64,000 bases of DNA from Eledone cirrhosa. Its lineage: Eukaryota. Positions 16,893 through 44,185 of this stretch are shown piece by piece. Location of the stretch: the NCBI GenBank assembly GCA_964016885.1, contig OZ024756.1:2666001-2730000 (forward strand). The letters run 5' to 3'. Made by a program: the position numbers and the translations under genes. Under the pieces are notes generated by a model. That model was not told the origin of the DNA, did no database searches, and saw nothing but the letters and a program-made list of their open reading frames with translations. Numbering within the stretch: position 1 is the first letter of the stretch; each line of letters begins with the position of its first letter.

Positions 16893-18842
16893 TGTGTGTA
16901 AGTATGTATGTATACGCACATACATATATGTATACAGACGTACAGTAGCATGCATATATATATATATATATATATATATATATATACATACATACAGGTA
17001 CACATACATATATGCACGTATCAGTTTAGCGGACGCTTATTATAACGCCGCTTTGTTCGTTTGTAAACAAACTGAACAGCCTGAATTTATGCCGTACGGT
17101 GTTAAGGCAACCACGTCACCTTTTTGTTCAACACTGACACAGGAACGATGTACTAGTTTCAAGCTTGTTAGCTATCATCAGCACCGTATACCCTTCTGCC
17201 AGATAGTTGAACGTTCGAAAGTATATACTTTCCTTATGAAAATTAACGGCTGAGCAGCCTAATTTGCATATCGAGTGAGTTAAGTCGTTTTCATTTTATT
17301 TCAACTTATCGTTTTCGGTATGCCTGACCGACTTAACTCACTCGATATGCAAATTAGGCTGCTCAGCCGTTAATTTTCACAAGGAAAGTATATACTTTCG
17401 AACGTTCAACTATCTGGCAGAAGGGTATACGGTGCTGATGATAGCTAACAAGCTTGAAACTAGTTCATCGTTCCTGTGTCAGTGTTGAACAAAAAGGTGA
17501 CGTGGTTGCCTTAACACCGTACGGCATAAATTCAGGCTGTTCAGTTTGTTTACAAACGAACAAAGCGGCGTTATAATAGGCGTCCGCTAAACTGATACGT
17601 GCATATATCTATGTGTACCTGTATGTATATATATATATATATATATATATATGCATGCTACTGTACGTCTGTATACATATATGTATGTACGTATACATAC
17701 ATACTTACATTTAAGTAAGTGCCGTACTAAGAGTGAGAAATGAAATTTCGTTTTCATTTTATTTCAACTTATCGTTTTCGGTATGTCTGACCGACTTAAC
17801 TCACTCGATATGCAAATTAGGCTGCTCAGCCGTTAATTTTCATAAGGAAAGTATATACTTTCGAACGTTCAACTATCTGGCAGAAGGGTATACGGTGCTG
17901 ATGATAGCTAACAAGCTTGAAACTAGTACATCGTTCCTGTGTCAGTGTTGAACAAAAAGGTGACGTGGTTGCCTTAACACCGTACGGCATAAATTCAGGC
18001 TGTTCAGTTTGTTTACAAACGAACAAAGCGGCGTTATAATAAGCGTCCGCTAAACTGATACGTGCATATATGTATGTGTACCTGTATGTATATATATATA
18101 TATATATGCATGCTACTGTACGTCTGTATACATATATGTATGTACGTATACATACATACTTACATTTAAGTAAGTACCGTACTAAGAGTGAGAAATGAAA
18201 TTTCGTTTTCATTTTATTTCAACTTATATATATATATATATATATATATATATATATGCATGCTACTGTACGTCTGTATACATATATGTATGTACGTATA
18301 CATACATACTTACATTTAAGTAAGTGCCGTACTAAGAGTGAGAAATGAAATTTCGTTTTCATTTTATTTCAACTTATCGTATTCCGTATACCCGACCGAC
18401 TTAATTCACTCGATATGCAAATTAGGCTGCTCAGCCGTTAATTTTCATAAGGAAAGTATATACTTTCGAACGTTCAACTATCTGGCAGAAGGGTATACGG
18501 TGCCGATGATAGCTAACAAGCTTGAAACTAGTACATCGTTCCTGTGTCAGTGTTGAACAAAAAGGTGACGTGGTTGCCTTAACACCGAACGGCATAAATT
18601 CAGGCTGTTCAGTTTGTTTACAAACGAACAAAGCGGCGTTATAATAAGCGTCCGCTAAACTGATACGTGCATATATGTATGTGTACCTGTATATATATAT
18701 ATATATATATATATATGTATATGCATGCTACTGTACGTCTGTATACATATATGTATTTACGTATACATACATACTTACATTTAAGTAAGTGCCGTACTAA
18801 GAGTGAGAAATGAAATTTCGTTTTCATTTTATTTCAACTTAT
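16893..18842 (+). mobile_element. Retrozyme-like tandem array A (~463-nt HHR monomer): one inverted plus ~3 sense copies
   Basis: HHRs cggtg-CTGATGA-t agc taacaa gct t-GAAA-ctag-TA/TT-catcg at 17146(-), 17430, 17893 and 18498(+). Inversion junction at ~17286; ends in (TA)n. Confidence 0.85.
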
Positions 18843-18984
18843 ATATATATATATATATATATATATATTTATATATATATATATATATATATATATATAT
18901 ATATATATATATATATATATATATATTTAGATAGATAGAGAGAAATATAGATATATAGATCAACAATAACAGAAAAAGAAGTAG

Positions 18985-20530
18985 AGCAGCAATTAAAGCA
19001 GAAACAGTAACAACAACAACAACAACACTTACAACAACATCAGCAGAAACAATAACAACAATAATAACAGTAATAGTAGCAAAAACACCAAGAGTAACTA
19101 CAGCAGCAACAACAACAACAACACCAACAACAACAGTATCACCAACAACAGCAGTAGAGACAACAACAGAAATAACAACAACAACGACAACAGCAGAAAT
19201 AACAACAACAACAACAACAGCAGAAATAACAACGACAACGACAACAGCAGAAATAACAACAACAACAACAGCAGAAATAACAACAACGACAACAGCAGAA
19301 ATAACAACAACAACGACAACAGCAGAAATAACAACAACAACGACAACAGCAGAAATAACAACAACAACAACAACAGCAGAAATAACAACGACAACGACAA
19401 CAGCAGAAATAACAACAACAACAACAACAGCAGAAATAACAACAACAACGACAACAGCAGAAATAACAACAACAACAACAACAACAGCAGAAATAACAAC
19501 AACAACGACAACAGCAGAAATAACAACAACAACAACAACAACAACAACAACAGAAATAACAACAACAACGACACCAGCAGAAATAACAACAACAACGACA
19601 CCAGCAGAAATAACAACAACAACGACCAGAGCAGAAATAACAACAACAACAACAGCAGAAATAACAACAACGACAACAGCAGAAATAACAACAACAACGA
19701 CAACAACAGAAATAACAACAACAGAAATAACAACAACAACAACAACAATATCACCAACAACAGCAGAAATAACAACAACAACAACAACAATATCACCAAC
19801 AACAGCAGAAATAACAACAACAACAACAACATCACCAACAACAGCAGAAATAACAACAACAACAACAACATCACCAACAACAGCAGAAATAACGACAACA
19901 ACAACAACATCACCAACAACAGCAGAAATAACAACAACAACAACAACATCACCAACAACAGCAGAAATAACAACAACAACAACATCACCAACAACAGCAG
20001 AAATAACAACAACAACAACAACATCAACAACAGCAGAAATAACAACAACAACAACAATATCACCAACAACTGCAGAAATAACAACAACAACAACAACATC
20101 ACCAACAACAGCAGAAATAACAACAACAACAACAACATCAACAACAGCAGAAATAACAACAACAACAACAACAACACTATCACCAACAACTGCAGAAATA
20201 ACAACAACAATATCACCAACAACAGCAGAAATAACAACAACAACAACAACATCACCAACAACAGCAAAAATAACAACAACAACAACAACAACATCACCAA
20301 CAACAGCAGAAATAACAACAACAACAACACTATCACCAACAACAGCAGAAATAACAACAACAACACTATCACCAACACAGCAGAAATAACAACAACAATA
20401 AGAACAATTACATCAGTAGAAGCAGTAGCAGTAACAACAACCACAACTAAAACAATATTACCACCACCACCACCACCACCACCAACAACAACAACAACAA
20501 CAACAACAGCAGTGCCGACAACCACAACAA
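18985..20530. repeat. (AAC)n-derived compound minisatellite (acagcagaaata(aca)n)
   Basis: Direct inspection. Confidence 0.9.
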
Positions 20531-41600: not shown

Positions 41601-41760
41601 ATTAATGCTACTTTATTTTATCGATCTAATAAGGATGAGTGGCATAGCTAACCTCGGTGGGATTTGAACTCAGGACGTAAAGAGACGTAACTATATGTCA
41701 CAAAGCATGTTACCCAATGCTCTACCGATTGTGACAGTCCAAAACCCCTGACACTACCAT
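38612..41760. mobile_element. Cluster of ~8 tRNA-derived SINE copies
   Basis: Copies at ~38612, 38805, 39634, 41044, 41370 and 41540 (-), and ~40810 and 41237 (+, partial). Confidence 0.8.
38926..39556 (-). repeat. 45-bp minisatellite (~14 units) made from the SINE 5' end/A box
   Basis: Unit tagcatggcgtccgaccctctaccgatactacaaatcccccgccc equals the reverse complement of the SINE head. Confidence 0.92.
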
Positions 41761-43857
41761 AATAAAAACGTGTACTTTGTGTAACAAAATCCCAAATCCA
41801 TAGGAAAAAAGAAATAGTCCTAACAAGCCGAAGACAATTCGTCCTCGAGGACGCCGCACCCTAATTTTGACAACCAAAAATGTTAAAAAATATAACAATC
41901 AACCCTCGGCCCCCAGGACGCATGCTAGATTTTTGACACCTAGTTTAGGAAAAAAGTAGCCTCTTCGACGCCGGGAAATATAGTAAATGTTTTTGTAGGC
42001 GATGAATTAGCAGATTGTTAGAGCGACGGATAGAATGATTTGTTCGAGTTCTCTTCTCTTTGAGTTCAAATCCCACCGAGATCAAAGAGTCGCTCCATGT
42101 AGAGCCACTACTTCTCTGAAATTAGGGATTACAGCCCCGATATTATGAACATATGGTTCTAATGTCTCAGGAAAGAATCACATGACAGATTTTTTCGGGA
42201 AAAATCAACTGGCAGGAAACCCAGCGGTAAATTCCGGCCCCCGAGCAAGATGGTTGGATAACAGCCATGAACTCGGCTGGTCTCACTTAGGAATCCAACC
42301 GAGTCAATTGGAAACGATTGCTTCTGACAGGACCCCCTGGAAGAGTGTTTGAAGGCTCTGCCCCCACGACCCCACCAGGAATAAATGGTAGGAGAAGAAG
42401 AAAATACTCAGTATTCGCCACATAAATTCCAAAAGGTAAATATATAGTAAATTTCGGTCAGTCCCACACGATCTTTGCAACCATGAGGTTACTATCAGTT
42501 GAGTGAAAGCTCACGCAAGAGGATCAACAAAATTTCCTTGGTTCGATCGAAGTTGTGACACTTAAACTTCTCTTAAACTCTGGAAGAAAAATGAAATAAC
42601 ATTAAATCGTAAATAAATATATGAATGGAGAATGCTGTCAATTGTTACGCAGTGACCCCCTTATGTTGATTATGATTAATAATTATGAAGAACTCACGTG
42701 GGGTTGACAACTGTAACATCACACGTCAGAAGCTGAAATACTGCATCCGGTGTTCAGGGACATCTGGTCTAGTGGCTTATGTAATGAGGCAGTTAAATTA
42801 ATCATTAGCGCTAATAGCAGCATATTGACATCAGTCAATAGAAACAACAACAACAACCAAAACACCAACAATAATAATAATAATAATAATAATAATAATA
42901 ATAATAATAATAATAATATCAATATTAATAATAATAATGATAATATAAATATTCTTTTAATTATCACAAATCTTCAGTATTTCCAGCTTTGCCCGCAAAT
43001 TGTGGCTGCTTACGGGAATCAATTGGGGATGAATTTCTCACGCTGTTCCAGAAACTTCGCACTTATGTAACCATGACATCGACTTCCGGTCACCCCTCTA
43101 CCCAATCCCCTCCTCAACCCCGACCCAATACCGTGATGTACTGAACTACATCCTATCATTTGGCCTCATTGTCCTTCAGTTACTCCCACACCCGATAGCT
43201 CTAAACTACGAACCTTCTCTATTTTTTATATTAAATTGTTCTCACCTTTCAGGCTTCAGGCTAACATACAAACTATCCCTGGGTCTCGAATAATCCCCCC
43301 CCCCAACACTTATCGCCGCTTTCACCCTTAACGGGATCTTCTGAAACTGTTACTTTAATAAATATTTGCTCTATGGTTTTTATATATTTGATATTTGTTT
43401 TTATATATTTGGCCTTATATATCGCGCCCTCTTCGGATTTTAGTCTTCACATTTATTATTATTACTATATATATATATATATATATAGTGGTAGAACATA
43501 GTGGTAATATCCGTAGTGGTAGAGCACTCAGTCCATGGGACGAGTTAGGTAGAAGTGGTTACACAACAGTTAGTTCACCATACCGAGAAAAATTGTTTCA
43601 CCTTAGCGGATCCTCAGCTATATAAGTGGTTACACAACATATATAAGTGGTTACACAACAGTTAGTTCACCATATATATATATATAGGGGAAAAAGATGA
43701 AATCGAAAATGCAACTGGAGTCTTTTTAAAAATATTTATTTGTTTCCTTTACCGGTTTCACAGTTCTGTGAAACCGGTAAAGGAAACAAATAAATATTCT
43801 TAAAAAGACTCCAGTTGCATTTTCGATTTCATCTTTTTTCCTTATACTTTCACTCAT

Positions 43858-44185
43858 ACTAAGAGTGAGAAATGAAATTTCGTTTCATTTTTTCCGTTTA
43901 TCGTTTTCGGTGCGCCCGGCCGATTAACTCACTTGATATGCACATTAGGCTGCTCAGCCGTTAATATGCATAAGGAAAGTAAATACTTTCAGACGTTCAA
44001 CCATCTGGTAGGAAGGTATACGTTGCTGACGATAGCTAATAAGCTTGAAACTAGTACAGCGTTCCTTTGTCAGTGTTGAACAAAAGGGCAACGATGGTTG
44101 CTATAGGATGTACGGCTTAATTCGGGATGTTTGTTTACAAACACACCGAACATTATAATAAATGTTCGGTAAATCCATACGTACA
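43858..44185 (+). mobile_element. Diverged single partial monomer of retrozyme family A
   Basis: Colinear with array A. HHR 44021-44061 cgttg-CTGACGA-tagc taataa gctt-GAAA-ctag-TA-cagcg. Confidence 0.85.

Follow-up and report, generated by a model that had tools for sequence, protein, structure and literature searches.

The units of animal non-long terminal repeat (non-LTR) retrozymes are given a range of 150-450 bp in the passages of Cervera and de la Pena (2020, PMC7229834) that describe them, and for salamander motifs the pairing of two units via the stem III palindrome as a double hammerhead has been described. In the parts of a 2020 review that deal with retrozymes, no conserved motif is named that would indicate their partner or their mode of priming, and the open question addressed here is by what mechanism new genomic copies of animal retrozymes arise. 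For vertebrate retrozymes, the link to Penelope-like elements (PLEs) is presented in the corresponding sections of Li, Clavereau, and Pollet (bioRxiv 10.64898/2026.07.22.740005) as one of co-occurrence and of similarity to PLE terminal repeats (pLTRs). PLEs themselves target (TA)n and form partial tandems that have an inverted 5' copy and a tail on one side (Craig et al. 2021, PMC8557442); the relevant sections of the same paper also note non-autonomous head-to-tail forms in Chlamys and name an assay system for Penelope reverse transcription as missing. For plant retrozymes, a common branched, viroid-like plan maintained at low identity has already been stated (PMC7761336, in its account of these elements). 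We analyzed a 64-kb stretch of AT-rich, animal-type DNA with many microsatellites from Eledone cirrhosa (assembly GCA_964016885.1, contig OZ024756.1, positions 2,666,001 to 2,730,000; hereafter, the window) and identified a family of non-coding repeats with a unit of about 465 bases, represented by two arrays (A and B) and one isolated copy (C).

The hammerhead core and stems, the tandem units, the combination of inverted and direct arms, the (TA)n flanks, the common end points, and the conserved predicted fold together lead us to consider it quite probable that this family is an animal non-LTR retrozyme that borrows a Penelope-like reverse transcriptase (RT) for its copying into (TA)n. The original prediction, made from the sequence alone, had set the repeats apart as a distinct family of structured noncoding RNA. 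They do form a family of their own, likely a new one, that fits within the animal non-LTR retrozymes, a class already known from the descriptions in PMC7229834.

The repeats had been taken for simple tandem arrays, and each array instead consists of an inverted arm plus a direct arm (Table 1). The units are joined head to tail, in a multi-unit tandem rather than between two LTRs, with a GC content of 0.36 for both the 463-nt unit of A and the 467-nt unit of B, lengths that agree with the spacing of the cleavage sites. In array B this spacing is 467 in all four intervals (4/4), and the units are identical to one another in both orientations, as copying from one template predicts. In array A the spacing is 463 and then 605, the latter because of a 150-nt internal duplication, and each copy carries a few private substitutions. 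A and B are 60-61% identical. Copy C matches A at 268 of 330 positions (81%) and is without three parts of the fold described below (hairpins H4 and H5 and the 3' strand of stem P0); the three diverged monomers originally proposed are therefore two lineages, the copy at 43858 being a 330-nt fragment close to A. No stop-to-stop frame of at least 120 aa is present in B or C; A has two frames of 130-135 aa antisense to the ribozyme that extend through microsatellite. No open reading frame (ORF) for an RT or a GIY-YIG endonuclease lies within or adjoining arrays A and B, and a profile search of the window yielded no further members of the family. A weak profile match at 57157-57262 (E 0.006) was dropped for want of a ribozyme core, and Rfam microRNA matches over the arrays, which scored below their gathering scores, have their source in the inversion and the microsatellites. 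An assembly artefact behind the inverted arms was judged unlikely, as they are seen in two arrays with matching end points.

Eleven hammerhead copies were located through the GAAACTAGT junction. The CTGA-GA core is intact in 10 of them, accompanied by stems I-III, and reads CCGATGA in the eleventh, the third copy of the direct arm of array A. All are type I hammerheads, with a stem I of 6-7 bp followed by an internal loop and then two G-C pairs. As originally described, A, B, and C have a TAA(C/T)AA loop II and an ACTAGT stem III, a palindrome, and stem I differs while staying paired (cggtg/catcg, cgttg/cagcg, and aatattg/caatatt). A and C have a U-U at the base of stem II, and the B ribozyme has GUU as its cleavage site. 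Neither hammerhead reached the gathering score of the Rfam HH9 model (52): that of B matched with 37.7 bits (E 1.4e-8) and that of A weakly, with 17.6 bits (E 0.037). Between A and B, both sides have changed in 6 of the 14 ribozyme pairs, and none of the 25 substitutions found in variants of the repeat from other runs falls within the ribozyme, where 2.7 would be expected. The hammerhead pattern is confined to the sense strand of the repeat; pattern scans found none in metagenome contigs and none in viral contigs.

A and B were folded separately as circles, with 30 dinucleotide shuffles each, and gave the same helices in one branched plan, so that the common plan proposed earlier came through the circular folding that had been suggested as its check. 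The minimum free energy (MFE) was −148.5 for A against −101.8 ± 4.3 for its shuffles and −151.6 for B against −92.9 ± 5.4 (z about −10.9 for both), with 69% of the predicted circle paired. The antisense strands had z scores of −4.7 and −6.5; the sense-strand fold is more stable than the antisense one by about 26-32 kcal/mol and has more G-U pairs (14 versus 8 and 11 versus 5). In the predicted plan the ribozyme sits atop a long stem (P2b/P2a) that opens to a junction carrying H1, the P0 domain, the GTGAG/CTCAC domain, H8, and H9. The P0 domain is closed by an 8-bp long-range stem, P0, and encloses H2 to H5 (H2, H3, H4, and H5); the domain closed by GTGAG/CTCAC encloses H6 and the TATCG stem. 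The motifs first reported were all found, in the order given for them, in A, B, and C (GTGAG/CTCAC, AAA(T/C)GAAA/TTTC, ATGCA(A/C)ATTAG/TAAT(T/A)T(T/G)CAT, and AAAG/CTTT), as were the outer stems, GTTCAAC/GTTGAAC in A and C and TTCTCTAGA/TCTGGAGAA in B; the folds add P0, H1, H5, the TATCG stem, and H2, whose loop is TTTA. Copy C alone, folded as a linear molecule, gave a z score of −3.2, with 1 of 100 shuffles as good.

Of A's 154 predicted pairs, 32, 35, and 51 coincide exactly with those of B in three sequence-only alignments. In a neutral simulation with substitutions only (35 pairs for each of the ancestors A and B), descendants at the same identity shared a mean of 4.1 and 2.8 pairs and at most 23, and they folded to about −107 and −100, losing 40-50 kcal/mol. 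Outside the ribozyme, A and B were aligned by hand over 11 helices, or 72 positions; H3, for which no register between A and B is possible, was left out, as was H4, in which 4 of 20 pairs form in one lineage only under the register used. The pair is the same at 53 positions, has changed on both sides at 16 and on one side at 2, is a mismatch in both lineages at 1, and is broken at 0. The 16 double changes, of which 10 lie in long-range stems and 6 in local hairpins, compare with 4.0 expected and were reached in 0 of 100,000 shuffles, a result that we read as support and not as a significance test because registers fitted to the fold and a single contrast inflate the p-value. Copy C being a fragment 81% identical to A, the covariation rests on the one comparison of A with B. 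The covarying plan originally proposed is borne out at these 16 of 72 positions; A and B do not differ in the GTGAG/CTCAC stem, in the TATCG stem, or in the ATGCA..CAT hairpin, which are conserved rather than covarying.

The circularity of fitted registers is avoided when C's sequence is placed on a fold obtained from A alone. On that fold, C breaks 3 of 75 non-ribozyme pairs versus 12.1 expected, and none of 20,000 shuffles was as low. One-sided changes between A and C lead to or from G-U seven times and to A-C once, and over the pooled data the ratio of G-U to A-C outcomes is 16:5 (p 0.013). The 25 substitutions in the variants from three other runs have a mean cost of 0.66 kcal/mol versus 1.11 expected (p 0.03). 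RNAalifold, applied to sequence-only MAFFT alignments, recovered the ribozyme domain, with a double change in 14 of 52 pairs. Selection on a predicted branched RNA fold outside the ribozyme, with a G-U lean on the sense strand, is thus supported, and four tests favor the viroid-like fold for which selection had been claimed; the fixed length claimed along with it is not significant, a net difference of at most 12 arising in 38% of random-sign draws of 12 gaps (p 0.38).

Paired hairpins might also be kept or regenerated at the DNA level, by template switching at imperfect inverted repeats, with no selection on RNA. The AT-rich, self-complementary hairpins H4, H6, and H9 do fold on both strands, in line with the antisense z scores, and the six double changes in local hairpins could arise in this way. 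The 10 in long-range stems, the better sense-strand fold with its additional G-U pairs, the excess of G-U over A-C outcomes, and the restriction of the ribozyme core to one strand argue against it, and we regard it as very improbable.

The boundaries of arrays A and B, both of which are flanked by (TA)n, provide a second line of evidence. All three direct ends (the end of B, the end of A, and an internal end, or restart, in A at 18227) stop after a homologous TTAT, where the unit would continue with CG, out of 31 TAT sites on offer in A and 16 in B; at the termini of both direct arms, (AT)n follows. Both direct ends in A may come from one event. The inverted arms (2/2) stop within the 4-nt loop of the small hairpin H5, 64 nt (A) and 74 nt (B) upstream of the direct end, adjoining (CA)n(TA)n in A and (TA)n in B. 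In B, the inverted-arm end corresponds to unit position 25632 and the direct-arm end to 25706, both within a domain composed of H5, the 3' strand of P0, the GTGAG stem, H6, and the TATCG stem, which is a candidate docking and priming domain for the RT. Such a pattern of end points likely reflects Penelope-type geometry with a fixed priming site. The further idea that a domain of the circle itself serves to dock and prime a Penelope RT has a fair chance of being right, though we would not call it probable.

A stranded pLTR of a PLE, amplified locally as DNA, could also have produced a ribozyme-bearing minisatellite, whose fold would have been selected earlier in autonomous elements and which would form no free circle. 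This route is proposed in the parts of bioRxiv 10.64898/2026.07.22.740005 that treat it, where cleavage is reported in 1 of 9 Xenopus dimers; PLE ends, as described, look like partial tandems and inverted copies, and other short hammerhead families with inverted copies occur in the window. On such an origin, however, neither array has an adjoining ORF remnant, the unit joints are head to tail, and the PLE ends in the window have no match to the repeat. Moreover, in each of the two lineages the long-range stems enclose a unit of the size of a circle, and unequal crossing-over fails to explain inverted arms that end in the same loop in two arrays. We therefore judge local amplification of a pLTR to be unlikely.

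PLE-type RT and GIY-YIG remnants lie in the window at 486-1991 and 4868-6430, with linker motifs of the Hydra type and of the Neptune/Nematis type, and one of them ends in (TA)n. They provide context for the arrays and at most a candidate partner.

Table 1. Positions in the window of the repeat arrays, their ribozymes and candidate domain, and the PLE remnants
Feature	Position	Strand	Description
Decayed Penelope-like ORF pieces	486..1991	+	GIY-YIG, CxCX5C linker as in Hydra clade; PF01541 E 5e-4, below cut-off
Decayed Penelope-like element	4868..6985	+	RT, CX4CxxC linker, 3' end in (TA)n; PF00078 E 4e-4, below cut-off
Array A, inverted arm	16897..17287	−	391 nt, one hammerhead, cleavage site 17151
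Array A, direct arm	17285..18842	+	1558 nt; cleavage sites 17465, 17928, 18533
One A monomer, predicted circle	17466..17928	+	463 nt between successive cleavage sites, GC 0.36
A type I hammerhead	17887..17937	+	Stem I 6+2 bp, CTGATGA, loop TAACAA, ACTAGT stem III, GUA site
Array B, inverted arm	24201..25251	−	2.25 units; cleavage sites 24897, 24430
Array B, direct arm	25249..27107	+	3.98 units, 467 nt; cleavage sites 25403, 25870, 26337, 26804
H5, P0 3' strand, GTGAG stem, H6, and TATCG stem domain	25626..25734	+	Holds both insertion end points
B type I hammerhead	25829..25879	+	Stem I 7+2 bp, stem II GTTG/CAAC, loop TAACAA, ACTAGT stem III
Copy C	43857..44186	+	330-nt fragment, one hammerhead, core CTGACGA, cleavage site 44056

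Under the retrozyme reading, we hypothesize that read-through transcription across the arrays would be followed by self-cleavage at each hammerhead to unit length, for which the ACUAGU palindrome of stem III makes a double hammerhead probable, and that a host ligase would close the unit into a branched RNA circle. A PLE enzyme might then copy the circle by target-primed reverse transcription, with a nicked (TA)n end pairing with UUAU in the TATCG stem; an RT running round the circle would produce identical units, and a second priming event, located 64-74 nt upstream in the H5 loop, would produce the inverted arm. Selection would act on the element's own copying, the fold being kept because only those copies that cleave, circularize, survive, and present the domain would be recopied.

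A circle of this kind could, in addition, replicate as RNA and pass between hosts, in which case the arrays would be integrated copies. Words of the B unit occur in 20 of 24 listed runs (17 studies, 17 organism labels), half or more of them in 10 runs; the three contig runs examined contain the unit, mostly >90% alike and with partly shared and partly private variants, and all three (3/3) show the head-to-tail joint, the sequence going back by 467. In these same runs, however, the contigs with the unit are short and its word depth is low (mostly 2-30). No RNA run is listed among those with words of B, which has no bearing on expression. The hammerhead is on one polarity only, and there was no match among viral or metagenome contigs. 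Low-level carry-over between pooled libraries, or related hosts, would explain the run data equally well, and host-to-host movement is therefore unlikely; a travelling viroid-like circle as the source of the arrays would surprise us greatly. That a viroid-like circle, the 465-nt architecture, an own Penelope priming domain, and movement between hosts should hold jointly is just as hard to credit.

Several observations weigh against a PLE-copied retrozyme under structural selection. We infer the transcription, cleavage, and circles of the A and B repeats, and the circular MFE structures of A, B, and C are without a fully formed catalytic core. The covariation count is a single contrast on fold-fitted registers with an inflated p-value; the comparison of A with C shows no surplus of double changes (2 versus 1.0 expected, p 0.25-0.30). 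For the variants from other runs alone, the G-U lean is 9:4 (p 0.13) and pairs are broken by 6 of 25 substitutions versus 9.0 expected (p 0.086). Several of the RNAalifold double changes are in slipped register, and RNAalifold missed P0 and the GTGAG stem in the other half, where the alignment slips. At the DNA level, the shared end points are drawn from two arrays only, their 64-74 nt offset compares with a tail of 30-40 bp described for PLEs, copy C has no (TA)n flanks, and the repeat has no sequence similarity to PLE terminal repeats in the window. Local amplification or consensus polishing could also be the source of the identical B units.

Further repeats in the window were recorded alongside this family. 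A Hydra-clade-like Penelope remnant spans 1-3240, its first ~480 bases being an inverted copy of about 2770-3240, and two related Penelope-like remnants at 4868-8404 have 3' ends that share a common motif and stop at (TA)n; in the latter, hammerhead-like cores are located at 6709 and 8144, and the minus strand at 7211 has what looks like a canonical type I hammerhead. A second short hammerhead repeat family occurs at 27375-27491, 27965-28163, 43503-43619, 53467-53522, and 55874-55943, mostly adjoining (TA)n, with the core CTGA-GA..GAAA followed by the palindromic ACAATTGT and with an inverted pair at 28058-28117. A third, hammerhead-like family (54092-54200 and 54800-55050) has a stem I of 6-7 bp and a longer stem III and forms inverted pairs at or near (TA)n. 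The fold-back piece at 16590-16690, with a hammerhead-like core at 16632, is related to 4540-4600. Immediately to the left of copy C lies a 164-nt near-perfect palindrome (43683-43846), similar to miniature inverted-repeat transposable elements and related to the hairpins at 29130-29373 and 46020-46336. At 38927-39548 a 45-nt unit is repeated in tandem 13.8 times (97% alike), and this unit resembles part of a dispersed repeat resembling short interspersed nuclear elements (SINEs) at 27330-27370 and 4220-4260. A repeat in the window may resemble the SINEs of octopods.

Two lineages 40% apart keep one predicted domain, and their copying appears to start and restart at the same two places, inside (TA)n. 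If this is true genome-wide, the family would supply the RNA template, the priming site, and the target, all of them defined, with which Penelope reverse transcription could be assayed, and it would be a natural example of an animal repeat in which structural selection acts on the whole circle. The portions of the literature consulted contained no description of this family, of covariation in the circle of an animal retrozyme, or of insertion ends that are fixed, and the supplement of PMC7229834 may hold related elements.

Among the described systems, the plant LTR retrozymes and Avsunviroidae, as presented in the passages of PMC7761336 on their structure, share with this family a branched fold despite low identity and a unit length defined by the ribozyme. 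They differ in that the hammerhead here is of type I and not type III and the repeats are multi-unit tandems of integrated DNA with a single polarity; a viroid has no DNA phase and ribozymes on both polarities, whereas these are integrated arrays with a hammerhead on the sense strand only. With the Hydra, Neptune, and Naiad PLEs, on the evidence of the relevant parts of PMC8557442, the arrays have in common partial tandems, an inverted 5' copy, one longer end, and (TA)n targets, and the geometry of a non-autonomous PLE (a tandem plus an inverted 5' copy, an extended end, and (TA)n) was found in 2 of 2 arrays. In contrast to these elements, the arrays have no RT or endonuclease ORF, which sets them outside the autonomous PLEs (defined by an RT plus GIY-YIG ORF), and they have a full-size hammerhead with a conserved loop II and an offset of 64-74 nt versus 30-40 bp.

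The nearest relatives are the non-LTR retrozymes. A and B have two or more units in succession that contain a complete hammerhead, as in the definition used for vertebrates in the corresponding section of bioRxiv 10.64898/2026.07.22.740005, and lie within the 51-972 bp given there for the units; the link to PLEs differs, being one of insertion geometry here, with no pLTR match in the window. The animal non-LTR retrozymes characterized in the sections of PMC7229834 devoted to them are likewise short non-coding tandems with GC <50%, one type I hammerhead per unit, a self-paired predicted circle, and PLEs in the same genome. Members of the class also lack a primer-binding site and a polypurine tract, self-cleave, and accumulate as circular RNA. 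The passages concerned make no mention of inverted arms, a target in microsatellites, end points that are fixed, or covariation beyond the ribozyme, and the 463-467 nt of A and B are just above the size range that they give. In the ribozyme itself, the stem III of A, B, and C is like that of the axolotl HHR_Amex1, in which a weak helix III carries a palindromic tetraloop, and the U-U at the base of helix II in A and C is like that of the axolotl HHR_Amex2, both as described in the same source.

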